Below, piece after piece: positions 8,543 through 40,715 of a stretch of DNA of 40,907 bases; the stretch's first letter is position 1; the number at the start of each line of letters is the position of its first letter. Position numbers and translations under genes: made by a program. The notes beneath the pieces were generated by a model. That model was not told the origin of the DNA, did not search any database, and saw only the letters and a list, made by a program, of their open reading frames with translations. This DNA is from a virus: IMG/VR virus record IMGVR_UViG_3300045988_157868, positions 1 through 40,907 of that record; one strand, 5' to 3'.

Positions 8543-11500
8543 CTATGCGCCGTTCATGGCCATGACTTGCTGCCGGGCGTGCATCTCTGACCGGCGCAGG
8601 CCCTCCTCCACGTTGTTTGTTTCAATGTGATAGTGCACTTCCACTGGCGCAGGCGGATCCGCAGGTGGGTTCGGTGGGGTGCCCGTGGCGGCTTGGGTGA
8701 TGGCCCTAGCGTGCTGCGGATCGGCGTTGAGCATTTCCAGGAGCGGCCTGGCATGCCGCGTTGCCGCCTCACGCACCACAAATTCACCATTGGACAGCCA
8801 TGCGGGGATAAGGTCATCAGTGGGACCGCCGGGGCCTTCCACCAGTCCGCCACCCGCGTACCCGTGCCCCTGACCCCACATCGTGGTCAAATCGAAACCG
8901 TACCGGCTGCGGTAGTAGCGTAGGGCTGCCACCATATTCGAGAACGGATTCCGGCGGTCGTTGGGTAGCTCGGGGTCCCTATGGGCGGCATACGTTGCCG
9001 GAATGATCTGCAACAACCCCACACCCGCCGACTCCCCAGACCCATTCACATCCACGATCTGCTGGGCAATATTCGGGTCACCGCCGGACTCTGACTGGAT
9101 CTGCTTTATCATGGCGTTGACCTGGGCCGGGTCGTCCGCGTTGAAGCCAACCCTGCGCATGGCGGCCATGGCCATGCCACGCCACTGCTCAGCGCCGCCG
9201 CCTGGCACATACACATGGTCAATATCGCCATCGTCGGCTTTTGGCGCTTTGATCGGTGAAAGGCCGCCCACCAAGTCCAGGCCGGTGACCTCTACCGTAT
9301 CCACCTGCGGGTCGGCGTCAATCACACTCGCTGCTGCCTGGGACAGGCTGGTGATTTCTTTCTGCTTCGCGGCGGTACCCGAGCGCTTCGATACGCTCTG
9401 GCGGGCTTTCAACCACTGGCTATAGGCCTTCACCATCGGGATGTCATCAGACACACCAACCAGGCCTAACAGGTCCTTGGTGTGGCCTGCCGCCGCGGTC
9501 TTAGCGAAATCAGCAACAATCTCTGAAATACTGGATGGGCCATCTGATTTCGCCCCGGTCACATACGAATCCGGGTCAGACTTACCCGACGCCCGGAACG
9601 ACTTGAGCTTATCGCCCGACGGGTCGGTGGTCTCCACAGCACTAGCAGAAGCAGCGTCGGTGTGGCCGAAATCAATATCGCCCAAACCGCCCATGCGGGG
9701 CACCTTAATCGGGGCGAAAAACTCCGCCGGCACATGCGCATGATCCGTGTACTGGGGATGACTAGCAGGTGCCGCACTGCCACCAAATTGGCCATTGCCG
9801 CGGCCGCCACCCATCTCCACATTTGTGCCGGACGGGAGGGTGCCGGAAGTGTGGCCGCCACCCGGGCCCCCGTTATACCAGCCGATCTGCAGTGACCCAG
9901 AGGGCCCCAGGCCAGGAAGGAACCCTAAAGCGCTGAGGCCTTCTTTCTCTGATGCTGTGGTGAACCGGCCGGCCCAAGGGTCAACACCCGCCGTGTAGCG
10001 GGCAATCGCCGACATGGCACCACTACAGTCGCCCCAGTGGACGCCACCCCACACATACGGTTTGCCTTCCAGGTCGGAAGCGAAACTGTCCAAATCGTCA
10101 ATGGTGATACCACCCTCGGCGAAAGCACGCACATCCGTGGGGCCTAGACTGCCCTTCGCTACCGGGGCGAAGCCTTTGCCCTTAGCATCGACAAGGCTGT
10201 AGCCGAAGTGGTCCGCCACCGCGGCAGTAATCGCCACAGCGCGGGAGCGTCGGTAGTCATTAGCCAAAGGGATGTAGGCTTCGCCGCCGGTCTCGGGCTC
10301 TGCCCATACACGCCATTCGCCACCAGCGGCAATCTGCGGGGAATGATCTTCCCCACCAGCAGCATAACGGCGAACCGAGCCCGTGGCGTGGCGGCTAGCG
10401 CGACTGGAGAACGGGCTGCGGATAGCGCTCAGCTTATCGCTAAACCACTCCGTAACGTTCTCCCACATGTCTTTCATGCCATTCCACAGACCACTGATGA
10501 TGGTTTTGCCGGCATTAATTAACCAATCTTTGGCACCCTTGAACACGTCAAGCACTAGCTGGCGGATACCCTTAACCTTTTCCACCACAGCCTTCACACC
10601 ATTAGCAACCGCGGCAGAAGCGTTATTCCACATGGTCATGAACTGGTTCACCAGCCGCTTGCCAAAATCAACGATCAGGCTAACGGCGCGGGAAATAAAC
10701 TGCTGAAAACTGCTGACGATCTTCGTGATGAACTGGCTAGTAGCAGCAATTAGCCGGGCTTTGAAAGAATCCCAGTTCGTCACCGCCTGCACCACAAAGT
10801 TAATGATTGCGGCTAAAACCTTCACGACGGCGCCGATGAGCTCACCGATAATAGCGATCACCGGGGCAACAGCCGTAATAATTGTGGCGAATACCTGCAC
10901 CAGACCCACAATCGCCGGCATCAGAGCCCCAATGACCCCGATCAACGGAGAGATAATATCAAACGCCAACTTGGTGAACACCGGGATCAGCGGAGCCACC
11001 GCATCAAAGATCTGCTGCCACGCCGCCACCATCTGCGGAAGGAACGGCATCAACTGCCCCAAATACTGCGTCACCAAATCAGCAAGCATGCCCACCAGGT
11101 CCGAGAAAATTGGGGCCAACTGCTGAATCAGCGGGGTCAAGGCCGTAGCAGCAATTTGGATCACCGGCGCCAACGCGCCCACTACCTGGCTCAAACCCTG
11201 CGCAACCGGCACCAAGGCAGCAGTTAATAACTCACCCAACACGGGGAGAAGCGGCGCTAACGCGGCACCAATATCGCTCAGCAGCTGGCCAATCGGCCCC
11301 ATCGCCGGAGCCAAAGCAGACAACCCATCCGCGAAACCCTGCACAAACATCTGAACACCCGGCGCGGCCTGCTGGATGAAATCGCTGATGGCCGGCATGA
11401 TCGTAGTGCCGATAGAAGTGAGGGCCGTGGATAGGATAGGCATGAGGGCGGCCAGACCATCAGTCATGGAAGAGAAGAACGACCCTAAGGCTTGCTGCCC

Positions 11501-23859: not shown

Positions 23860-25493
23860 AAAAACACCGCCCTTCCTGAATGCTTTGGCATGTGATGCGC
23901 CGCGTGCTCTAGATACAGCCTGCGCACCATGCGGGCCCCGATTAGGCATACCGCGGCATCAATCTTTTTCGCCGATGATGGGGACTCCTTTTTCACTGAT
24001 ATGCCATATCGGTTCTCTGCGCGCCGGCAGTTCCGCATATGGGCAGTAAGTACTGGGTGTCCATCGTGGGTAAAAGCATGCTCGATGATTTCTCTTTCTG
24101 TGAGCTCACACGCTTGGGTGAAATCGAAAAGTTTCCCGCGCATATCCCACGCAATCGGCTCCGGCTGCTTCCCACCAGGGTTCGCCCAGAGCTGCAGCCG
24201 GTCTTTATAGCGTGCCGGCCAAGTGACCTTCGTGAAGCTTTCCCACTCGCGGACGTCTGCGAAAAAGGCTTTCACATCATACCTGGCGAAGGCGTTATCC
24301 ACACGCGCGTCTACCGCCTCCACATCCACTGTGCCGGCGTCGTTATGGCTGTTGCCGGGGTCCCATGACCCAATCAGAAAAACGTGGCCATCGCTAACCC
24401 GACACCCTACCAGGGCTGTGGTATCGCGGGACAGTGAGCCGTCGAAGAACATGACAATTTCCTCCCCTTCTGCCACGATGGTTTCCCGGCGAGCCATGAG
24501 CGCAATATCGTTCGGGTCTACCCAGGCGTTCGCGGCCGCGGTAGGCCAGTTCAGGTATTTACGCTTGGAATCATCCGGGGAAGCCTCTGGTGACCAAACC
24601 CGAGTGATGATGGTATCAACATCCATCCATGGGCAATCTTGATACACAAACTCCAGCCCAGCGCGAAGCGAAATGGCGTCAGCCAGATTAGTGTCTGGTG
24701 GTGCTTGGCGGATATCCATGAGGATTTGCCGGTCGTTCTTCGCCTTCCCGTTTTCCTGGAGACACCAAGCCTGGAAGGTGCTCTCGCCGACCGTGCCCAG
24801 GCCTGGTTCCCAAGCGTTCAGGGTCCCTAGCATTCGGCTTCCTGACTTGGCCAAATTGTCCGCCAGGGTGCTGTATAGCTTGGTGCCACCATTGCCTGGC
24901 GTCCAGTGTTCGAGCTCATCACCGACGATGAACGTGGCTTCGGCGCCTTCTTGGGTCATAGCTGACGAAGTAATGACCTCCAGCTTTCCTTCCGGCACGA
25001 TATTGATTTGGGTTTTACCGGGGTCAATATCATAATCACGATGCAATCTAGGTGCGGCTTTCTTATTCGCCATCGCACGCACATGACGCATCGTATTATC
25101 AGTTTGCTTCTCGGACACTGCGGCTATCTGCACCCATGGCATGGCTACCGGCTTACCGATACAAGCGCCTGGCACCTGGGGGTCAAACCGATCAAGCCGA
25201 ACCGGAGCCAGCAACTCCGTCAGGGCCAGGGCGGCGGCAAACGGGCTCTTACCACTCCCCTTAGCCAGCCGGCGGAAAGAGTTATAGAACAGCCACTTGC
25301 CATTCTCATCAATCGCGTAAAACCACAGGATGAACCTGGCCTGGCGTTCGGTGTAAACCCACGGCAACCCGGCGCGAATCCCGTTCGGGTGCTTCAAATA
25401 TTTCGCGGCCCACGCTAGTGCCTCCCAGCCGAGTGTTAAATCAGGAACCCCCGGGGGGAGCGTGTCTAGCCGCTCCTCCGGGGGAATCATCAT
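23856..25493 (-). CDS. terL: Terminase large subunit
   Basis: 545 aa. Walker-A-like RRLAKGSGKSPFAAALAL. ATPase then nuclease architecture. Overlaps the TerS stop. Confidence 0.9.
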   Translation of the reverse strand: MMIPPEERLDTLPPGVPDLTLGWEALAWAAKYLKHPNGIRAGLPWVYTERQARFILWFYAIDENGKWLFYNSFRRLAKGSGKSPFAAALALTELLAPVRLDRFDPQVPGACIGKPVAMPWVQIAAVSEKQTDNTMRHVRAMANKKAAPRLHRDYDIDPGKTQINIVPEGKLEVITSSAMTQEGAEATFIVGDELEHWTPGNGGTKLYSTLADNLAKSGSRMLGTLNAWEPGLGTVGESTFQAWCLQENGKAKNDRQILMDIRQAPPDTNLADAISLRAGLEFVYQDCPWMDVDTIITRVWSPEASPDDSKRKYLNWPTAAANAWVDPNDIALMARRETIVAEGEEIVMFFDGSLSRDTTALVGCRVSDGHVFLIGSWDPGNSHNDAGTVDVEAVDARVDNAFARYDVKAFFADVREWESFTKVTWPARYKDRLQLWANPGGKQPEPIAWDMRGKLFDFTQACELTEREIIEHAFTHDGHPVLTAHMRNCRRAENRYGISVKKESPSSAKKIDAAVCLIGARMVRRLYLEHAAHHMPKHSGRAVFL

Positions 25494-25927
25494 GCTAGAT
25501 CAGCCCGATACTGTTCCATGATCGACACAGTAGCCTCCTTCGCCTCATCCGTTATCTTCGGGGTGGTGAGCTCTACACGCAGCCGGCGGCGGGCTCCTTC
25601 GGTGGTCATCAGGGCATCAGCACGGGAAAAGATTACGTCCATCATCCCAGCACGGGCACCTGTCGGAGAGCTTAATTCTTGGGTGATAAGCCAGCACACT
25701 AAGCGGGCTTCCTGCCAGTCGCTTTCCTGATAGAACTGTGCCTGACCACTTCGCTTCAGGGAGCGGAACCACTGTTTCGCATACGGGTGCCACGCCCGGT
25801 CCTCTGTGGGCGGCTTCACCACCTGCTGCCCCATGGCCACCACCACAGCGGGAGCATCAGCCTCCGGTTTATTACGCCGCCTACGCTGGTCGCTACGCTT
25901 CGGCACCGGGCCACGCACCATAACCAA
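25490..25927 (-). CDS. terS: Terminase small subunit (P27-like)
   Basis: 145 aa. Basic N-terminus GPVPKRSDQRRRRNKP and WHPYAKQWFRSLKRSGQAQFYQESDW, typical of P27-family small terminases. Immediately upstream of TerL. Confidence 0.75.
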   Translation of the reverse strand: MVMVRGPVPKRSDQRRRRNKPEADAPAVVVAMGQQVVKPPTEDRAWHPYAKQWFRSLKRSGQAQFYQESDWQEARLVCWLITQELSSPTGARAGMMDVIFSRADALMTTEGARRRLRVELTTPKITDEAKEATVSIMEQYRADLA

Positions 25928-26824: not shown

Positions 26825-27178
26825 TCATTTCAGGCCGGGGTGGCGGGTAGCAAACCTGTCATACAGCCGGCGCCGGGCTACCCGACGCTGAACACCGCGC
26901 ACCGATTCGCGCCGGGACTTTTTCGCATGGCATAACGGGCATAACCACTGGAGGTTATCGAGCGCGTCGGTGCCGCCCTCAGCGACCGGGACGACGTGGT
27001 CCAACTCTAGACTGTCTCGCCCTATCACTGGTTCGGCACCACACTGGGCGCACCAGTAAGAAAGACGCTGTTTCGCTAATCGGTGTAGGCGTTTCCACTC
27101 AGCCGCGGTTGTGCGCGATACGCCATTACGCCACGCCATCAGCAGCACCGCCTTGCGGCGGGCGGACGATAGCAGCAA
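26825..27178 (-). CDS. HNH endonuclease (packaging-associated type)
   Basis: 117 aa. CAQCGAEP...LELDHVVPVAEGGTDALDNLQWLCPLCHAKK. Near the terminase genes. The start may be the internal MAWRNGV at 27139. Confidence 0.85.
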   Translation of the reverse strand: MLLSSARRKAVLLMAWRNGVSRTTAAEWKRLHRLAKQRLSYWCAQCGAEPVIGRDSLELDHVVPVAEGGTDALDNLQWLCPLCHAKKSRRESVRGVQRRVARRRLYDRFATRHPGLK

Positions 27179-27380
27179 TCGCCCATGACAGTGCTTGCTC
27201 TAGGTGCGTGATAGCTAGCTCACGCTCACGACAGTCCGGTGCGATCGCCGCCACACGATGCGCCGCCGCCTGCATACTAGCGCGAACCTTAATGCAGTCT
27301 TCGCACTGGTCGTCGGTGCCTTCGTGATACCGGAAGCGACGATCAATCTCCTGCTGGATACTCTTCGCTTGTGATCCCAT
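27126..27380 (-). CDS. Conserved-looking small phage protein of unknown function
   Basis: 84 aa from ATG 27380 (MGSQAKS), preceded by GGAGGAGG. Motif FRYHEG...RERELAITHLEQALSWAIAAI. Confidence 0.5.
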   Translation of the reverse strand: MGSQAKSIQQEIDRRFRYHEGTDDQCEDCIKVRASMQAAAHRVAAIAPDCRERELAITHLEQALSWAIAAIVRPPQGGAADGVA

Positions 27381-27450
27381 GATCCCCTCCTCCCCAACCC
27401 TAGGCATGACTAAACCCCTAGGTGTTTACCCAGGGGTTCCGAACGCCAGT

Positions 27451-35144: not shown

Positions 35145-35411
35145 TCACGCAGCAGATCGCTTACTTGGCCGGCGGCGTTGAGGTCGGATTTTTTCTGTTG
35201 AAACGTAAAATGCATCGGCGAATTCAACCGGATAGGTTGTCAATACAGATCCGATAAATCGTGGTCCTGCTTCGGCTTGCCCTCTGGCATATCGGCTAAT
35301 AGTCGATACGGTTGTCTGCAGTTCATCCGCTAGGCCGGATAAGCTGCCCGCTTGCGTTATTCGATGCTCAAGCCAATCTTGTCGCACTCGAACCGTGTTT
35401 ACGGTAGGCAT
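35145..35411 (-). CDS. Cro-like HTH (XRE-type) early regulator
   Basis: 88 aa from ATG 35411 (MPTVNTVRV), after GGAGGCGAA. HTH SLSGLADELQTTVSTISRYARGQ. Divergent from the repressor gene. Confidence 0.65.
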   Translation of the reverse strand: MPTVNTVRVRQDWLEHRITQAGSLSGLADELQTTVSTISRYARGQAEAGPRFIGSVLTTYPVEFADAFYVSTEKIRPQRRRPSKRSAA

Positions 35412-35441
35412 TTCGCCTCCTTTGTTTTTAAACAATCTTGA

Positions 35442-35456
35442 TTTGTGCTTACGCAA
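35442..35456. promoter_or_regulatory. Operator-like repeat copy 1 (TTTGTGCTTACGCAA)
   Basis: Perfect 15-nt match to 35521-35535. Ends TTG.G...C.CAA show partial dyad symmetry. Confidence 0.55.
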
Positions 35457-35459
35457 GCA

Positions 35460-35488
35460 AGAATAGACCAATTTTTGTTCTAGCGCAA
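35460..35488 (-). promoter_or_regulatory. Candidate early (Cro-side) promoter overlapping operator copy 2
   Basis: On the minus strand: TTGCGC (35483-35488), 17-nt spacer, TATTCT (35460-35465). Operator-like copy 2, tttgttctagcgcaa (35474-35488), matches the repeat at 12 of 15. Confidence 0.4.
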
Positions 35489-35506
35489 GGCCAATTTGGA
35501 TTGGCC
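35489..35506. promoter_or_regulatory. Inverted repeat GGCCAAT-TTGG-ATTGGCC in the switch region
   Basis: 7-bp perfect arms with a 4-nt spacer, between the divergent promoters. Confidence 0.35.
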
Positions 35507-35513
35507 CAATAAC

Positions 35514-35542
35514 TTGCCTTTTTGTGCTTACGCAATTACGAT
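35514..35542 (+). promoter_or_regulatory. Candidate repressor promoter (leaderless) with operator copy 3 in the spacer
   Basis: TTGCCT (35514-35519), 17-nt spacer containing TTTGTGCTTACGCAA (35521-35535), TACGAT (35537-35542). The ATG follows 7 nt later at 35550, with no SD. Confidence 0.45.
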
Positions 35543-35549
35543 CTGACAC

Positions 35550-36083
35550 ATGAAGCAAACTCGCTGGTGGAAATACGTAACGGAAACAATCCAAGGTCGC
35601 ACTTTCAAAGAAGCTGCCAAAATCGCAGGATTCGATCAATCAGCTTTCACCCGATGGAAAGATGGTGCAGCCGCAAAACCTGAATTCGTTGTAAAATTTG
35701 CTCGCGCCTATAACCGCAATATCTTAGAAGCCCTAGTGGAGGCAGAATTTATCACAGAACAAGAAGCGGGATTGCAAAAAGTAAACGTTCCAGACATCCG
35801 ATCCGCACTACGACTCGCACCTGAAGAATGGTTAGCTGACGAAGTACTCAAACGAATGCGTGCAGGTGCAAAAACTGACGAGTTCGCGCCCCCTCTTGAC
35901 GAACTGGTTGAACGCCAACAACATAAAGCTAATAAACTAAACTCCGATCCTAAACCGGATGATCCTTGGGCTGCAGCGGCCGCAGTCAGTGGCAAGGACT
36001 CATGGCGCGGTGATGAAATGGTTGCCGACGACTCGGAGGAAGAAGGCTTCCTAGGTGACGATAATTACAGCGATGGTCCATAA
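35550..36083 (+). CDS. Immunity repressor candidate (HTH, no peptidase domain, acidic disordered C-terminus)
   Basis: 177 aa. HTH RTFKEAAKIAGFDQSAFTRWKDG. Divergent from the Cro-like gene. C-terminus DDSEEEGFLGDDNYSDGP. Confidence 0.65.
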   Translation: MKQTRWWKYVTETIQGRTFKEAAKIAGFDQSAFTRWKDGAAAKPEFVVKFARAYNRNILEALVEAEFITEQEAGLQKVNVPDIRSALRLAPEEWLADEVLKRMRAGAKTDEFAPPLDELVERQQHKANKLNSDPKPDDPWAAAAAVSGKDSWRGDEMVADDSEEEGFLGDDNYSDGP

Positions 36084-36646: not shown

Positions 36647-36673
36647 GATGTATTTGATAATTATGTGCATGGC

Positions 36674-36861
36674 CTGTAATCGAATCTTTATCTAAAACCT
36701 ATATACGAATAAGTCTTTAGCGGGTAGTGTTTTCCTTAAATAATATTCATAAGAACATGAGGGAACGACCATGGCCGGTATTTATGATGCCCGATCCACT
36801 AGAGAATGGTGCAATCAAGAAGCCGTAGGTGAGCTTTTTTGCCAGACGGTGCTTAACGATA
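36674..36861 (+). repeat. Copy A of the ~190-bp diverged direct repeat (leader plus first ~30 codons)
   Basis: Aligns by eye with 37312-37498 (for example aatctttatctaaaacctatatacgaataa vs aatctttacctaaaacctatatgcggataa; tatgatgcccgatccac in both). Confidence 0.8.
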
Positions 36862-36896
36862 GCGGAAGAGGTTGCAGTCATGATAACCATGCTTGA
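36771..36896 (+). pseudogene. Truncated 41-codon paralogue of the HIRAN/TM2 gene 5' end (or a leader ORF for the ImmA-like gene)
   Basis: MAGIYDARSTREWCNQEAVGELFCQTVLND... parallels MPSIYDARSTREWCDQETVGESFYRTALND... of the 399-aa gene. GAGGGA SD. Stop at 36894-36896, overlapping the ImmA-like start. Confidence 0.55.
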
Positions 36897-37287
36897 TTTG
36901 GAACAATTAGCCGAAGAGATGGGCGTTATGATAGTTACCCATACCGGTGGTAAGAAGGGTGGTTGGAATCCGACAACCCGCACCGTCAGCCTTCGGGAGG
37001 GCATGCACGAAGTGCAAACATTGTGCACGCTAGCACACGAGCTAGGGCATGCCCACTATAGACACCAGCTTGGCGCAACAGGATTGGCGCGCGAACAACA
37101 GGAACGCGAAGCAAACGAATGGGCCGCAATCTTACTCATAGATGAGAATGATTACATGGCGGCCGAAATCAACTGTGACAGTATAAGCTCGATCGCTCAC
37201 GAGCTGGGCGTGACTATTCTCATGGTAGGGATTTGGAGACAGCTCTACGCCAAAGGGAAGATACCGCAGTACTGCATCCAGGACTAA
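36880..37287 (+). CDS. ImmA/IrrE-family zinc metallopeptidase
   Basis: 135 aa from ATG 36880 (MITMLDLEQLAE). HEXXH motif LAHELGHAHY. EREANEWAAILLI is typical of the family. Confidence 0.75.
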   Translation: MITMLDLEQLAEEMGVMIVTHTGGKKGGWNPTTRTVSLREGMHEVQTLCTLAHELGHAHYRHQLGATGLAREQQEREANEWAAILLIDENDYMAAEINCDSISSIAHELGVTILMVGIWRQLYAKGKIPQYCIQD

Positions 37288-37311
37288 TGATTCCTCAATT
37301 GCTACGAAACC

Positions 37312-37498
37312 CCGTAACCGAATCTTTACCTAAAACCTATATGCGGATAACAGTTTAACGGGTAACCTTTTTCTTAAAGGAAGCTCATAAAAACATGAGG
37401 AGACAATCATGCCCAGCATCTATGATGCCCGATCCACCAGGGAATGGTGCGATCAGGAAACCGTAGGTGAGTCCTTTTATCGAACAGCGCTTAACGAT
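37312..37498 (+). repeat. Copy B of the ~190-bp diverged direct repeat
   Basis: See copy A. The minus-strand shadow ORFs 36747-37028 and 37385-37765 share the tail LTYGFLIAPF..GSGII..GH...LMFL, which reflects the repeat. Confidence 0.8.
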
Positions 37499-38608
37499 AT
37501 CAGAAAACTTGTTCCACTGAATGAGCATAAAGTTCGCCGATTTGACGCAACGCTCGTGTTGGAAATGGACAATCCACATTCCGAAGCTGGTCATGCAATA
37601 TCTGTCAGGTGGCAAGACCGGGTTATTGCTTATATACCCGATTTGGAGACTGATGATTATTTTCCCGAACTGGCACGCCTTGCCGCTAGCGGGTTCGATG
37701 CCGGAGTGAGGGGTACTTTGTGGACGAATGAGACACAGCCCAATTTCAATCCCAACGAGGTTCACATGTCAGTGCATGTTGGGCCGCAACCACCCGGCAT
37801 GATCGTGCCTATTAACAATCCGCCTTCACGAAAATGGGCAGTCATCCCCCGGGGACAAGCTAGCCAGGTCACTAAGGAAAAAGACCACCTCGATGTGCTG
37901 CAACCATATACGGGGCTAGGCCATAAGAAAACCTACATTCTTGTAACGCTGCACAAGGTGCTTCTTGGTACGCGCACCCGCTGGGCCGGGGTCGAGGTTC
38001 GACTAGACGGCAAGCGAATCGGAGAGTTAAGTAAGGCGACTGGGGCAAAATTCCTCCCCATCATTGAGCACTACGATTCTCTCGGGCTTGTTACCGTATG
38101 CCATGCCTATCTCAGGGAAACTGCCACCTCTGCTGAAGTTGCCCTCAAAGCTGCGACCTTTGAAGAGATAACAGATGCAGATCTATATAATCCCGTTGTA
38201 TGCCCGATTCCGCAGCTGGTGCCTTATGCTTTTGACCCTTACACCTATAATGTTCCCGGACGGTACCGGCCGGAACTCGAAGATGACGCATATAGTGATT
38301 GGGAATATGAAGAGCCCCATTACTTCAATCCGCCGCGACTGGGATACTACAATGCAGAGCTAGTAGGTCCCAACAATTCCGTGGGTAGGGCACCATTGCG
38401 GGGATATTTGCAAACCAGTATAGGCCTAAGCGGTAACAAGAGCTACGCTATCTACCTTCTTTGTCTTTTCTTTGGTGGCTACATCGGGTTGCACCACTAC
38501 TATGTAGGGAAAATCGGCAAAGGGGTTCTATATACATGCACAATGGGGTTGTTCATGATCGGCTGGATCGCAGATATTCTTAACCCCCGGCGCGGTTTTT
38601 ATAGCTAG
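37409..38608 (+). CDS. Membrane-anchored protein: HIRAN-like domain(s) plus C-terminal TM2 domain
   Basis: 399 aa. VGESFYRTAL...ATLVLEMDNPHSEAGHAISVRWQDRVIAYIPD (HIRAN-like). A second similar block, ILVTLHKVLL...VEVRLDGKRIGELS. C-terminal YAIYLLCLFFGGYIGLHHYYVGKIGKGVLYTCTMGLFMIGWIADIL (TM2-like). Confidence 0.65.
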   Translation: MPSIYDARSTREWCDQETVGESFYRTALNDIRKLVPLNEHKVRRFDATLVLEMDNPHSEAGHAISVRWQDRVIAYIPDLETDDYFPELARLAASGFDAGVRGTLWTNETQPNFNPNEVHMSVHVGPQPPGMIVPINNPPSRKWAVIPRGQASQVTKEKDHLDVLQPYTGLGHKKTYILVTLHKVLLGTRTRWAGVEVRLDGKRIGELSKATGAKFLPIIEHYDSLGLVTVCHAYLRETATSAEVALKAATFEEITDADLYNPVVCPIPQLVPYAFDPYTYNVPGRYRPELEDDAYSDWEYEEPHYFNPPRLGYYNAELVGPNNSVGRAPLRGYLQTSIGLSGNKSYAIYLLCLFFGGYIGLHHYYVGKIGKGVLYTCTMGLFMIGWIADILNPRRGFYS

Positions 38609-38625: not shown

Positions 38626-38661
38626 CCCCTATCCTCATCACGAGGGTGGGGGTTGTTTTTT
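38626..38661 (+). terminator. Rho-independent terminator after the HIRAN/TM2 gene
   Basis: CCCCTATCCTC-atcac-GAGGGTGGGG (bulged stem) followed by GTTGTTTTTTAT. Confidence 0.6.
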
Positions 38662-38674
38662 ATATTACCCCCAC

Positions 38675-38704
38675 TTGACACGTAACGTTCTAGAACTGTA
38701 TAAT
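38675..38704 (+). promoter_or_regulatory. Consensus sigma-70-type promoter
   Basis: TTGACA (38675-38680), 18-nt spacer, TATAAT (38699-38704). Confidence 0.65.
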
Positions 38705-38759
38705 GGGTAGTGTTCCACCAAGGAACAGGGAGAACTCAATAGTGGAGGGAGGTGATGAC

Positions 38760-38903
38760 ATGTCACCCTGGCGCTCCCCCGGTCCGTGGGAAGCAGCTGG
38801 TATTATTCTCGGCCTTCTGGCCTGGTTTTTCCCGAGAGGCGGTAAGCCTGGGAAACACCGGAAAGGCGTGAAGCGATACCGGCGCGGAAAGCGGAAGAAG
38901 TAG
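38760..38903 (+). CDS. 47-aa single-pass membrane peptide with polybasic C-terminus
   Basis: MSPWRSPGPWEAAGIILGLLAWFFPRGGKPGKHRKGVKRYRRGKRKK. SD GGAGGGAGGTG upstream. Between the consensus promoter and a GC hairpin. Confidence 0.55.
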   Translation: MSPWRSPGPWEAAGIILGLLAWFFPRGGKPGKHRKGVKRYRRGKRKK

Positions 38904-38974: not shown

Positions 38975-39106
38975 ATGAAAACATCAATCCGGTGGGGCAT
39001 TTCGGTTGCCGTTGCGGTATTCCTCTACACCCGACCGAACCCACTATGGCTGCTGATCTACACGATTGGCATCATCACCCTGCTAGCAAGGGAGTTCAAC
39101 CGATGA
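38975..39106 (+). CDS. 43-aa two-segment hydrophobic peptide, translationally coupled to the Xis-like gene
   Basis: MKTSIRWGISVAVAVFLYTRPNPLWLLIYTIGIITLLAREFNR. SD AAAGGAGG. ATGA overlap with the next gene. Below the ORF-track cutoff. Confidence 0.5.
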   Translation: MKTSIRWGISVAVAVFLYTRPNPLWLLIYTIGIITLLAREFNR

Positions 39107-39333
39107 CGGTAATCCCTATTATCACCGACCAAGCCACAGGGCGGGTGCTATGGCGAGTCATCGACTGCGCCACCTACTGCGGTATCGGCCCACGCACCTG
39201 GGCGAACTACCATGCAGGCGGTCGAACGCCCCAACCCGTAGCGCACCTCGATGGCCGCACACCCCTATGGGACGCAGAGGAGGTGAAAGCCTGGCACGCT
39301 AACCGCCCCGGCTCGCCAATCAAAGCAACATAA
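39103..39333 (+). CDS. xis: Excisionase / AlpA-like HTH protein
   Basis: 76 aa from ATG 39103. IDCATYCGIGPRTWANYHAGGRTPQP...PLWDAEEVKAWHANRPG resembles actinobacterial Xis/AlpA-type proteins. Convergent with the integrase. Confidence 0.6.
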   Translation: MTVIPIITDQATGRVLWRVIDCATYCGIGPRTWANYHAGGRTPQPVAHLDGRTPLWDAEEVKAWHANRPGSPIKAT

Positions 39334-39557: not shown

Positions 39558-40715
39558 TTATGAACCCATGAGCGAGTCACTCACCCGCTGCAATGCCTCC
39601 TGGCGCCTGGCATTGGAGGTGCGCATATAGATCTCAGTGATGGTCTTTAGGTCTACCTGGCCTAGTAGCTCGCCAATCGCGGGGATTGTCATGCCCTGCT
39701 CCACCAGTGTGGTGATAAGCCACACACGACCATAGTGCGGGCTGATACGCTCGGTGATCCCGGCGCGGGTTTTAGCACGGTGGAGGACGGACCTGTAGGA
39801 GGTGTCTAGGATGATTTTGCCGGAGCCGGTGGTGCAGATGAAGGCGTCTGGGCTGTCGCCGATGGTGGCCAGGTGGTCGATGATGTCTTGGTGGAATTTT
39901 TTAAAGACGGGGATGGTGCGGTGGCTGGCGCTGGTTTTGGGGGTGTCCTGGTATTTCATGCCGTCTGAGGTGCGGTAGGCGTTTCCCCTGATATGGATGA
40001 GGATGGTGTCACCTGTAATGGTGATGTCTTTACGCCTGAGGCCTAGCACCTCTCCTATGCGCATGCCATGGAAGAACGTGAGGATACCTATTATCTTATG
40101 GGTCGGGTTTAAATTGTCCACAATTTTCTGCATGGTGGCGGCTTCGGGCAGTTCCTTGCGTGCTGGCTTGGGCTTGTGGCGGGCCTCTTTCACGTCCACT
40201 GGATTAGTAGGGATCAGATCCCGGTCTACCGCTGCCTGTATCGCAGTGCGAAGGCGCACATATGCCGCACGGTTATAGGGCTGGTATCCGAATTGTATGG
40301 TGAGCGCGTCCCACCAGTCGATTACATCACGGCGGGTAAGTCTTACCAGGGGGATGGTGCGGAGCCGACCGGCTTTGCCTGTGATAGTGAGAATACGGCG
40401 GTCGAGGGTGGTGCGGTAATTCACCATAGTGGAGGGCTTTAGGCGTTTTTCTTGGAGGTCTAGCCACTGGCGTAGCCAATCGCCGACGGTTCGGGCATCG
40501 TCTTCTTTCGTCCGGTACCGGAGGTGCGGGGGTTGCCATTCGTCGAATTCAATGAGTTTTTGTTCTTGACGCAGCCAGGCACCAGCATCGTCTTTGGTGA
40601 AGAATGGGTGGGGGCCGGAGTATTTTTTGCCATCAGGTCCGGTGTAGCGGGCGCGGTATTTGCCGGATGATAGCCGTGATATTGTGCCGAAGAGGCGTTT
40701 TTTAGGGGCGGGCAT
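39558..40715 (-). CDS. int: Tyrosine integrase
   Basis: 385 aa. HGMRIGEVLGLRRKDI (catalytic Arg region), SPHYGRVWLITTLVEQG (H..R), LKTITEIYMR (Tyr). Adjacent to the terminal repeat. Confidence 0.9.
   Translation of the reverse strand: MPAPKKRLFGTISRLSSGKYRARYTGPDGKKYSGPHPFFTKDDAGAWLRQEQKLIEFDEWQPPHLRYRTKEDDARTVGDWLRQWLDLQEKRLKPSTMVNYRTTLDRRILTITGKAGRLRTIPLVRLTRRDVIDWWDALTIQFGYQPYNRAAYVRLRTAIQAAVDRDLIPTNPVDVKEARHKPKPARKELPEAATMQKIVDNLNPTHKIIGILTFFHGMRIGEVLGLRRKDITITGDTILIHIRGNAYRTSDGMKYQDTPKTSASHRTIPVFKKFHQDIIDHLATIGDSPDAFICTTGSGKIILDTSYRSVLHRAKTRAGITERISPHYGRVWLITTLVEQGMTIPAIGELLGQVDLKTITEIYMRTSNARRQEALQRVSDSLMGS

Follow-up and report, generated by a model that had tools for sequence, protein, structure and literature searches.

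A tandem-HIRAN protein with a TM2 membrane hairpin in the lysogeny block of a Corynebacterium matruchotii prophage: a candidate for protecting the lysogen against incoming DNA

In temperate actinophages, the interval from repressor to integrase is a frequent place for defence genes that are expressed in the lysogen. The window analysed here – the whole 40,907-nucleotide stretch of IMG/VR virus record IMGVR_UViG_3300045988_157868 – has at this position a plus-strand reading frame that a sequence-only reading had taken for a membrane-anchored, HIRAN-like protein and a candidate undescribed factor in prophage exclusion or defence. The HIRAN domain of HLTF binds 3'-OH ends of single-stranded DNA (ssDNA), and the question raised by this locus is what such a domain, if genuine, might do for a prophage when it is tethered to the membrane.

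The reading frame (37409..38608, plus strand; ATG start, 399 aa, stop codon included) appears both in the program-made list of open reading frames and in the sequence itself, and the product contains the peptide strings originally quoted for it. Proteins 98–99% identical are encoded on more than 100 contigs, including one from C. matruchotii ATCC 33806 (WP_005520581.1), and a chance ORF is contradicted by 55 full-length homologues, a further view of the family by profile (172 homologues) and 1018 cluster representatives: this is a genuine gene in the lysogeny block of a C. matruchotii prophage. The family is common in prophages of this species, a structural organiser of dental plaque. Its product consists of four parts – a HIRAN domain (residues ~15–135), a degenerate HIRAN-like domain (136–261), a Pro/Tyr-rich linker and a TM2 hairpin (343–390) – and this anatomy, together with the leader, the terminator and the position in the lysogeny block, is as the sequence-only reading had seen it. 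The gene is, as had been said, AT-richer than the structural genes (GC 0.504 vs 0.582 for bases 1–33000); however, this is not specific to the gene, because the whole 35–39 kb immunity block is likewise AT-rich. The remark that it was not recognised as a named defence system agrees with a comparison of the 399-aa protein with the PADLOC-DB v2.0.0 models, which returned zero families at E<=1. "Undescribed" holds with a reservation: NCBI has already given names, "HIRAN domain-containing protein" for the wider family and "TM2 domain-containing protein" for this clade. A literature search turned up no work on the function of HIRAN proteins in membranes or of TM2 domains in bacteria.

The gene lies on the strand opposite to the structural genes, in a plus-strand series that runs from a candidate repressor through a 170-aa ORF, an ImmA-like peptidase and the tandem-HIRAN gene to a terminator. 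The candidate prophage repressor, a 177-aa helix-turn-helix protein (35550..36083, plus strand; weak HTH_31 match), heads this block and is divergent from a minus-strand HTH ORF (35145–35639), with three 15-mer operator-like repeats between the two. The peptidase gene, directly upstream of the tandem-HIRAN gene, encodes a 135-aa ImmA/IrrE-type M78 metallopeptidase with an HEXXH motif (36880..37287, plus strand; PF06114, E 1.1e-12), which has weak similarity to CapP and to RmrA (E 9e-5 or worse for the latter); it had been overlooked in the sequence-only reading. A minus-strand tyrosine integrase (39558..40715; PF00589, E 1.1e-13, plus Phage_int_SAM_3) bounds the block, and the proposed position between repressor and integrase is thereby borne out. 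A nucleotide search with the 3.6-kb region gave no match among 50,697 phage records; against the same records, tblastn matches of the full protein were confined to the TM2 region, and those of the N-terminal module were marginal (E>=0.09).

Upstream of the start codon is a leader (37311..37408, plus strand) that probably comprises a promoter and a 5'UTR, and it contains a GAGGAGA ribosome-binding site. It forms the upstream part of one copy (37311–37505) of a 195-nt direct repeat whose other copy (36673..36867, plus strand) is 78% identical and precedes the peptidase gene. This other copy holds the same leader and what remains of some 31 initial codons of a HIRAN gene, readable as a 41-aa ORF (36771–36896) that is also called in the related prophages L002 and L004; the duplication of leader and first 31 codons before the peptidase gene is a second feature that had escaped notice. 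The claim that the gene has its own conserved leader holds: besides the repeat, the leader is partly conserved and recognisable upstream of homologues only 41% identical. Two other roles for it were considered and rejected. As a riboswitch or structured RNA it had no Rfam match and a folding energy no better than that of shuffled sequences, and as an immunity operator it lacks the 15-mer, which is confined to the switch region at 35.4–35.5 kb. Downstream, the intrinsic terminator that had been reported at 38626..38661 (plus strand) is present and strong, with an 11-bp stem containing 7 GC pairs and a T-run; the hairpin (38626–38652) with its T-run has a dG of -21.8 kcal/mol (z about -2.8). With its own leader and terminator the gene appears to behave like a self-contained cassette.

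If the N-terminus is a HIRAN domain, it should resemble PF08797, either directly or through its relatives. No direct match was obtained: with the 399-aa protein, hmmscan at E<=1 found TM2 as the sole Pfam match, and the fragment of residues 1–287 did not match PF08797 at E<=1e-3. Relatives do match. Among homologues alignable over residues 1–287 at 30–57% identity, PF08797 was found in 84 of the 108 alignable full-length over this range (best E 1.2e-12) and in 68 of 123 from a second set (best E 6.8e-13), which makes 152 of 231 together; the lineages P0020–P0022 score 25–30 bits (cut-off 24.7) at aligned residues 44–87. The HIRAN-like pattern that the sequence-only reading had placed at residues ~15–100 is thus upheld through homologues and through alignment with HLTF, but not by a Pfam match of the protein's own. 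When the family profile was compared with the PDB, the best five matches were all HLTF HIRAN (E 0.1). In hhalign, the first domain (D1, residues 1–135; 37409..37813, plus strand) aligns with HLTF HIRAN at 74–90% probability (core E-values between 1.7e-6 and 2.8e-5; 90% over the signature motif), with the signature EPDNP[HY][DS]..AISVR..GY in register, and the global alignment is collinear, pairing VVG..YY, EPDNP.., AI.V, GYL and a Trp. A profile-against-PDB match from a small alignment, the sole match obtained there, was discarded as spurious.

The residues concerned are V19-G20...F23-Y24 ... L49-V-L-E52-M-D54-N55-P56-H57-S58 ... A63-I-S-V-R67 ... V72-I-A-Y75. Across 108 sequences the pocket columns are nearly invariant (E52 in 108, D54 in 105, N55 in 107, P56 in 101, an aromatic residue or His at 57 in 100), and the window protein retains the aromatic/His positions F23, Y24 and H57 as well as D54 and N55. 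The exception is the position of HLTF D94, the acidic residue that contacts the 3'-OH and has flanking aromatic residues: it is Ser58 here, and of the 108 relatives 53 have Asp and 45 have Ser at this place. Because the Asp94 equivalent is Ser58, recognition of the 3'-OH may differ, while the 3'-end-binding signature of the N-terminal HIRAN domain as a whole appears largely intact.

The "second similar beta-rich block" that had been noticed by eye proves to be an internal duplicate: D1 and the second domain (D2, residues 136–261; 37814..38191, plus strand) align in hhalign with 96.3% probability (E 2e-9, 89 columns). D2 is degenerate, having no EPDNP[HY][DS] signature, and shows conserved residues of its own (Q153-V-T-K-E157..H160, T180-L-H182, E196-V-R198). 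For residues 1–287 AF2 produced a high-confidence two-domain fold (pLDDT 95.6, pTM 0.88); an earlier run on the full length, from a 14-sequence alignment, reached pLDDT 62, and its PDB Foldseek search was uninformative. The high-confidence model matches a BFVD entry from a phage that is named "HIRAN domain containing protein" (E 8e-6, rmsd 2.9 Å, 116 columns) and, over both domains, gp33 of Propionibacterium phage E6 (E 2.4e-17, 267 columns). Against the PDB, Foldseek returned nothing at E<=1e-3 and HLTF HIRAN was absent from the 50 best matches. The modelling and fold search that had been suggested as a check therefore give a confident model and a phage HIRAN match but not the HLTF domain in the PDB; since the PDB search had no significant match, structural support for HIRAN comes from the BFVD matches and the profile alignments. 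The identity of D1 as a HIRAN domain is supported at the level of family homology and predicted fold.

The remainder of the protein is linker and membrane hairpin. The linker (residues 262–342; 38192..38434, plus strand) is indeed Pro/Tyr-rich, as described (15% Pro, 12% Tyr), has a pLDDT below 50 over residues 272–345 of the full-length model, and differs in length and sequence among close relatives. The C-terminus had been called TM2-type, and residues 343–390 (38435..38578, plus strand) match PF05154 over profile positions 2–50 of 51 (E 6.9e-11), with 42.6 bits against a curated cut-off of 27.9. The modelled hairpin consists of helices 346–365 and 369–391, with a hydropathy peak at 373–391, a conserved loop (G-x-H-x-(F/Y)-Y-x-G) and Arg/Lys residues flanking its ends; by hydropathy and sequence there is no N-terminal signal or transmembrane segment, a topology that would suit a cytoplasmic HIRAN module. 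In the family at large, hydropathy predicts at least one transmembrane segment in 145 of 192 members, and the type of anchor varies: TM2, a single segment with an outer domain, three segments, N-terminal segments, or DUF2510. Membrane anchoring, as judged from these predictions, is a family-wide trait despite the varying anchor. In the L011 prophage, a TM2 protein 67% identical to the TM2 region of the window protein is encoded separately, two genes downstream of the HIRAN homologue.

Clustering at 50% identity divides the family into more than 600 groups, and its members are for the most part membrane-anchored and confined to Actinobacteria; most of the 1018 representatives found with a D2 profile have two matched stretches. 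(A peptide-pattern scan of genome contigs yielded 4 loci, the patterns being overly strict.) The gene recurs in the lysogeny modules of five lineages that have diverged from one another: the window, P0020, P0061, the Auritidibacter prophage P0142 and the cultured temperate phage E6. In three of the four prophage lineages that could be checked – the window, P0020 and P0061, which are 40–44% identical – an M78 gene lies directly upstream, and the order M78, HIRAN gene, integrase is also that of the P0020 loci, where the M78 and HIRAN genes are 16 bp apart, and of the P0061 loci, where they overlap by 4 bp. No M78 neighbour accompanies E6 gp33, P0142, P0042 or any of the chromosomal members sampled. 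The 177-aa gene upstream in Auritidibacter was considered as a counterpart of the window's candidate repressor or of its 170-aa ORF and is similar to neither. Some chromosomal relatives stand beside defence genes (a type I restriction-modification system directly upstream; AIPR and a KAP/nSTAND NTPase with an IS element; PIN and Wadjet JetCD), and one relative is fused to a DUF4041-T5orf172 nuclease. Many others are chromosomal singletons without mobile-element genes, one relative lies beside sbcD/sbcC-like genes, and several have unremarkable chromosomal contexts. PHROG families matched by the TM2 region of the window protein or by the HIRAN region of its relatives are all annotated "unknown function".

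Because the family recurs in prophage immunity regions and in defence islands, the protein is, from its sequence and setting, a good candidate for protecting the lysogen against incoming DNA. An exclusion or defence role would be helped by this context of lysogeny modules and of restriction-modification, AIPR/KAP-NTPase and Wadjet/PIN neighbours. Our preferred reading, which we hold tentatively and as somewhat short of probable, is that a lysogen-expressed protein, by binding DNA with free 3' ends at the membrane's inner face, excludes or senses invading DNA; what we infer is that it is expressed in lysogens, faces the cytoplasm, binds DNA ends and protects. Under this reading the TM2 hairpin would hold the tandem-HIRAN module at the inner membrane face by way of the flexible Pro/Tyr linker, with D2 packed against D1 in a cytoplasm-facing module that would act on free 3' ends appearing at the membrane of the lysogen. 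When a phage genome is injected, the target might be its leading end or its 3' cohesive end, and other linear DNA entering the cell could be caught likewise; with that end capped or held, the DNA would fail to circularise or to become established, and this would amount to superinfection exclusion or defence. A cytoplasmic 3'-end binder would meet host DNA ends too, and the model leaves the sparing of self unexplained. A bolder form of the proposal, more speculative and on balance unlikely, is a sequence-independent "DNA-end trap": the free 3' ends or 3' cohesive ends of linear DNA would be captured as they emerge on the cytoplasmic side of the membrane, so that neither an injected phage genome nor transforming DNA could circularise or recombine. 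This would be a single-protein exclusion device, present in many Actinobacteria as well as in prophages of theirs, and it might have a second output that acts on the ImmA-like protease.

That protease is at the centre of the main rival account, which we consider rather unlikely: the protein may be the signalling partner of an ImmA-like switch, sensing DNA damage or incoming ssDNA through free 3' ends, modulating or paralleling the M78 peptidase and tuning induction or lysis timing. In its favour are the M78 gene directly upstream in three lineages as far apart as 40–44% identity, the same ~100-nt leader before both genes in the window, and the weak resemblance of the M78 protein to CapP, which is presumably a member of a DNA-damage-responsive protease family. 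Moreover, the 16-bp gap of one lineage and the 4-bp overlap of another suggest that the two genes are co-transcribed. Tight and sometimes overlapping linkage of this kind is as compatible with regulation as with defence. A precedent exists in pneumococcal lysogeny modules, where accessory membrane proteins can alter induction and the accessory genes szaL and spaL are reported to tune induction or lysis timing. However, since E6 gp33, P0142, P0042 and the chromosomal members have no M78 neighbour, the tandem-HIRAN protein probably works without the peptidase; ImmA genes normally lie between repressor and integrase, so that adjacency could be positional; and damage sensing has no obvious need of a membrane tether. 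Distinctly unlikely, in our judgement, is abortive infection by a single protein, whose HIRAN domain would sense the ends of phage DNA or intermediates of its replication, and whose TM2 hairpins would then oligomerise into a depolarising pore, like a fused lambda RexA/RexB. It draws on the presence of a DNA-binding-type sensor and a membrane domain in one polypeptide, on relatives with defence-island neighbours, and on L011, where neighbouring genes encode the HIRAN module and the 67%-identical TM2 module separately: because they occur both fused and as neighbours, TM2 is perhaps a functional partner and not an anchor alone. Yet one kind of anchor can stand in for another within the family, and tethering for that reason fits better than a conserved pore effector; moreover, we know of no evidence that TM2 domains form pores.

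Two further accounts would remove defence from the picture. The protein might serve host-type DNA maintenance, tethering or processing chromosomal or imported ends – in repair, or in blocking transformation, in which ssDNA enters 3'-end first, and hence prophage curing – and merely be carried by the prophage. Many chromosomal singletons without mobile-element genes, one of them by sbcD/sbcC-like genes, would fit, as would the subject of the study that describes the pneumococcal prophage gene thaL, transformation-mediated curing. The patchy, island-like distribution, the repeated capture into lysogeny modules, the low GC and the cassette-like boundaries tell against it, as does Corynebacterium itself, which to our knowledge is not naturally competent, and we regard this account as improbable. 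Very improbable indeed is a merely superficial likeness to HIRAN, the product being a plain TM2 membrane protein that has nothing to do with nucleic acids. The missing direct Pfam HIRAN match, the PDB Foldseek search without a significant hit and the Ser at the Asp94 equivalent would be expected of such a protein; against them stand PF08797 matches in 152 of 231 relatives (E down to 1e-12), the collinear HLTF alignment, the structural match to a phage HIRAN protein and signature residues that hardly vary.

Were the preferred reading – capture of 3' ends at the membrane – true, it would describe a defence keyed to a physical feature, a free 3' end at the membrane, and not to sequence or modification; if the protein is protective, this would be the first tested role for prokaryotic HIRAN domains. 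The phage-host biology of C. matruchotii is almost unstudied. The conserved pairing with an ImmA-like protease offers a handle on the signals that feed ImmA/ImmR-type prophage switches.

Among known systems, the TM2 family (PF05154; eukaryotic TM2D1-3 and small phage and bacterial proteins) shares the two-helix hairpin, the Pfam cut-off being passed; in contrast to other TM2 proteins, the hairpin is here fused to a 340-residue module that is predicted to be cytoplasmic and of DNA-binding type. RosmerTA pairs RmrA, an HTH plus M78 peptidase, with the toxin RmrT. This system was considered and rejected: the upstream M78 protein has 135 aa and no HTH, its RmrA matches are weak, and the HIRAN protein matches no RmrT model. 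The HipA-associated HIRAN proteins of Actinobacteria ("HipI") occupy genomic islands and have a predicted link to defence or toxin-antitoxin function (PMC11706625). Unlike HipI, the window protein is membrane-anchored with a tandem HIRAN, and a HipA-HIRAN module was likewise set aside, since no HipA gene occurs near it in the window or near its counterparts in the 13 related lineages that were sampled.

Lambda RexA/RexB, Sbash gp30/31 and CarolAnn gp43/44 are described as lysogen-expressed pairs encoded beside the repressor, in which a cytoplasmic (DNA-binding) sensor and a membrane component exclude heterotypic phages (PMC11077077, PMC6426596, PMC6426606). The likeness to RexA/RexB and the actinophage pairs is one of analogy, with no relationship in sequence or fold, and here one polypeptide takes the place of two. 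Pneumococcal ThaL, so named as the transmembrane HIRAN protein associated with lysogeny, is analogous too: compared by its description, it too joins HIRAN with one or more transmembrane segments, and its gene lies in the lysogeny module of a prophage. It differs in its Firmicute host and in the C1 regulation of its prophage, and tblastn of the window protein against the 50,697 phage records gave no streptococcal match. The only relative among deposited phage genomes is gp33 of Propionibacterium phage E6 ("DNA binding domain protein", YP_009597015.1), which is also membrane-anchored and also lies in the immunity region, downstream of the repressor and near the integrase, but has two N-terminal transmembrane segments in place of a C-terminal TM2 and has no M78 neighbour; similarity in sequence is marginal (tblastn E 0.09).

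The domain of solved structure with which D1 was aligned, the HLTF/Rad5-type HIRAN (PF08797; PDB 4S0N, 4XZF, 5BNH, 2MZN), comes from proteins of another build: the window protein is prokaryotic, prophage-borne and without an SNF2 helicase or RING domain, its HIRAN is duplicated in tandem with a degenerate second copy, is membrane-anchored and has Ser at Asp94, and two residues are inserted before the AISV strand. Within the domain, the same elements – VVG..(Y/F)(Y/H), (E/D)P.NP(Y/H)(D/S)..AI.V and ..(I/V)G(Y/H)L – recur, and the order of secondary structure is collinear, down to a helix followed by a final strand with its Trp.

The gene under study, an ATG-initiated ORF of 399 codons at 37409-38608 (+), contains the peptide strings quoted in the sequence-only reading and is a genuine gene, a chance ORF being excluded. 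A cluster representative 98% identical to its product (P0001) is found on some 100 public contigs; the exact version encoded in the window, too, is on public record. The P0001 cluster includes WP_005520581.1 of Corynebacterium matruchotii ATCC 33806, annotated only as "TM2 domain-containing protein"; relatives number 55 at full length, 172 by profile search and 1018 as cluster representatives. The anatomy proposed from sequence – a HIRAN-like domain, a second similar block, a Pro/Tyr-rich linker and a TM2-type C-terminus – proved correct overall, with a qualification for the HIRAN domain.

Pfam HIRAN (PF08797) gave no direct match to the protein, even at E<=1. The assignment comes instead through relatives: the distant homologues P0020-22, whose alignment to it spans all 287 N-terminal residues, exceed the Pfam HIRAN gathering score at the aligned position, and the Pfam model is matched by 84 of 108 relatives in one sample and by 68 of 123 in another. 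The five best matches of a family profile to the PDB are all HLTF HIRAN structures (E 0.1), and hhalign of the first domain (D1) against the HLTF HIRAN sequence (its aligned segment confirmed by the PDB alignment) gave 74-90% probability. Global alignment of the two proteins is collinear (VVG..YY, EPDNP.., AI.V, GYL and a final Trp), and the signature columns are nearly invariant across 108 family sequences (E52 in 108, D54 in 105, N55 in 107 and P56 in 101). One difference matters: Ser58 occupies the position of HLTF Asp94 – the residue contacting the 3'-OH – and across the same 108 sequences this position is Asp in 53 and Ser in 45. By homology D1 counts as a HIRAN domain, albeit one that fails the direct Pfam test and has no Asp94 equivalent. 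Comparison of D1 with D2 (residues 136-261) by hhalign (96.3% probability, E 2e-9, 89 columns) bears out the second block and indicates that D2 is a degenerate copy of the D1 fold; D2 has lost the EPDNP signature and has conserved residues of its own (QVTKE..H, TLH and EVR). P0021 and P0022, which are longer, carry an extra insert between D2 and TM2 (residues ~300-470) that by eye looks similar to a third HIRAN-like repeat (…VTVLSKSGKVLGRLNEPTSRIV…).

AlphaFold2 modeling of residues 1-287 with a 108-sequence alignment (pLDDT 95.6, pTM 0.88) predicts that D1 and D2 form a fixed two-domain unit. Foldseek found no significant match to this model in the PDB; among predicted viral structures it matched gp33 of Propionibacterium phage E6 (E 2.4e-17, 267 columns) and a phage "HIRAN domain containing protein" (E 8e-6, rmsd 2.9 A). 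The linker (residues 262-342; 15% Pro and 12% Tyr) is modeled with low confidence and varies even between close relatives. Pfam TM2 (PF05154) matches residues 343-390 above its curated cut-off (E 6.9e-11), and the predicted model has two C-terminal helices (346-365 and 369-391): by these measures the protein ends in a genuine TM2 domain. Since hydropathy reveals no N-terminal hydrophobic segment, and Arg/Lys residues lie at both ends of the TM2 hairpin, the HIRAN module most likely faces the cytoplasm.

Structural and early genes of the window are on the minus strand, and the lysogeny block is on the plus strand. A plus-strand HTH gene (35550-36083), divergent from a minus-strand HTH ORF (35145-35639), is followed by a 170-aa ORF, an ImmA/IrrE-type M78 peptidase gene (36880-37287 (+); E 1.1e-12), the HIRAN gene with its terminator and, beyond it, the integrase (39558-40715 (-)), which agrees with the proposed position between repressor and integrase. 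The claims of an own terminator and of AT-richness also stood: a strong intrinsic terminator (38626-38652 plus a T-run; dG -21.8 kcal/mol, z -2.8) lies 3' of the stop codon, and GC is 0.504 vs 0.582 in the structural genes, although the entire 35-39 kb block is similarly AT-rich. The divergent region between the HTH genes holds three copies of a 15-mer, TTTGTGCTTACGCAA (35442-35456, 35474-35488 and 35521-35535; two exact, one with 3 mismatches), that look like operators of an immunity switch; elsewhere in the window the motif is matched once only (13063, 3 mismatches). Directly after the terminator a perfect sigma-70 consensus promoter (38675-38704 (+); TTGACA, 18 nt, TATAAT; 12/12), with a -10 flank (GGGTAGTGTT) similar to a segment of the repeated leader, is directed at small plus-strand ORFs between the HIRAN gene and integrase (38703-38903 and 38992-39333), which by position could include an excisionase.

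The supposed conserved leader was upheld; it is partially conserved upstream of 41%-identical homologues. It belongs to a 195-nt direct repeat (78% identity) comprising a ~100-nt upstream region and the first ~31 codons of a HIRAN gene; copy A (36673-36867) precedes the M78 gene. Within it a 41-aa relic ORF (36771-36896 (+)), a remnant of the opening ~31 codons of another HIRAN gene allele, overlaps the M78 start. Sister prophages have kept this ORF, which may be a scar of recombination or perhaps a coupled leader peptide. The leader matched no known RNA family and folded no better than shuffles, and the 15-mer is absent from it. We infer that it is a promoter/5'UTR traveling with the gene, and that the repeat is a recombination scar that also brought the peptidase gene under this control region.

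Two other prophage lineages (P0020 and P0061) share the order M78, HIRAN protein, integrase, although their HIRAN proteins are only 36-44% identical to that of the window; M78 and HIRAN genes are separated by 16 bp in P0020 loci and overlap by 4 bp in P0061 loci. Two further lineages have the gene in the immunity region without M78: an Auritidibacter element and the cultured temperate phage E6, where gp33 comes after repressor gp34, with integrase gp28 close by. At P0020 loci the lysogeny region that holds the HIRAN homologue has more cargo resembling toxin-antitoxin or defence genes: a RhuM-family gene upstream of the small M78 gene and, 3' of the integrase, a gene pair for a 378-aa M78-peptidase protein and a DUF4411 (PIN-like) protein.

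The N-terminal module is spread across Actinobacteria (Corynebacterium, Dietzia, Mycobacterium, Arthrobacter, Pseudarthrobacter, Curtobacterium and Auritidibacter), usually under the NCBI name "HIRAN domain-containing protein". A D2-only profile found 623 representatives at E<=1e-10 among 1.84 billion, most with two matched stretches, which fits the D1/D2 duplication. Partners of the module vary (TM2; a single TM with a Ser/Thr-rich stretch and outer domain; three TMs; N-terminal TMs; DUF2510; more rarely TerD, Excalibur or a DUF4041-T5orf172 nuclease), and 145 of 192 members of 300 aa or more have at least one TM segment predicted by hydropathy, a count that overlooks some TM2 hairpins. Membrane tethering is thus conserved and the anchor interchangeable. 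In a P0042-type C. matruchotii prophage HIRAN and TM2 are encoded apart: two genes after the HIRAN protein comes a TM2 protein whose hairpin shares 67% identity with the window protein at its C-terminus, a fusion/neighbor link between the modules. At this prophage end (9649-10749 of locus L011) the HIRAN gene is followed by genes for a 154-aa lipoprotein-like Ser/Thr/Gly-rich protein and the 147-aa TM2 protein, and preceded by a DUF3037-like gene, another of which is near the Auritidibacter homologue. Among chromosomal members, one is directly 3' of a type I R-M operon, one is amid AIPR, a KAP/nSTAND NTPase and an IS element, and one is near PIN and Wadjet JetCD genes; the surroundings of others are uninformative.

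The gene encodes a two-domain HIRAN-type module at the membrane, as a cassette in the lysogeny block. The most economical function, put forward tentatively, would be to protect the lysogen against linear DNA entering the cell, and the recurrence of the family in lysogeny modules and defence islands supports this: made in the lysogen, the protein would bind free 3' ends of DNA at the inner face of the membrane and hold or cap the entering end, or a 3' cohesive end, such that the genome could not circularise. The Ser at the Asp94 position counts against this, as does self/non-self discrimination, which it leaves without explanation. On cohesive ends, the gene for the small terminase subunit (Terminase_7; 25490-25927 (-)) is closely preceded by an HNH endonuclease gene (26825-27178 (-)), an arrangement typical of cos-type packaging that bears on the idea of such ends on incoming genomes.

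Tight linkage to M78 would suit an input to, or partner of, an ImmA-type induction switch, but relatives without M78 make this doubtful. An abortive-infection device with TM2 as effector, to which the fusion/neighbor link lends itself, is unlikely given that anchors are interchangeable; a host-type DNA-end maintenance or anti-transformation factor is rather improbable, and a spurious HIRAN resemblance – the lack of a direct Pfam match set against homologues, profile and collinear motifs – is very improbable indeed.

Protection of the lysogen is plausible, and the defence interpretation is better motivated than from sequence alone. Elsewhere in the window, a 93-aa early-region protein (27126-27407 (-)) has an Acb2/Tad1 hairpin domain (PF24729, E 1.4e-12, above cut-off) and may sequester cyclic-nucleotide immune signals as an anti-CBASS or anti-Thoeris sponge; sister prophages have one or two copies. 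A HipA-HIRAN module was rejected, there being no HipA among the neighbors in the window or in 13 sampled relative lineages, as was RosmerTA: the upstream M78 protein has only weak RmrA similarity, and the HIRAN protein matches no RmrT model. The PHROG families matched, by the window protein through TM2 and by relatives through HIRAN, are all of 'unknown function', phage E6 alone among 50,697 deposited phage genomes carries a relative, and we found no published functional study of membrane HIRAN proteins or bacterial TM2 domains. The factor had been called undescribed: it matches no catalogued defence protein in PADLOC, but the architecture has been described in part, since that of ThaL from pneumococcal prophage phiRMV8, named but of untested function (PMC12637031), matches in description, as does its placement. 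Overall, the window encodes a HIRAN protein of prokaryotic kind that is tethered to the membrane and belongs to the lysogeny modules of prophages, and its architecture is not wholly undescribed.
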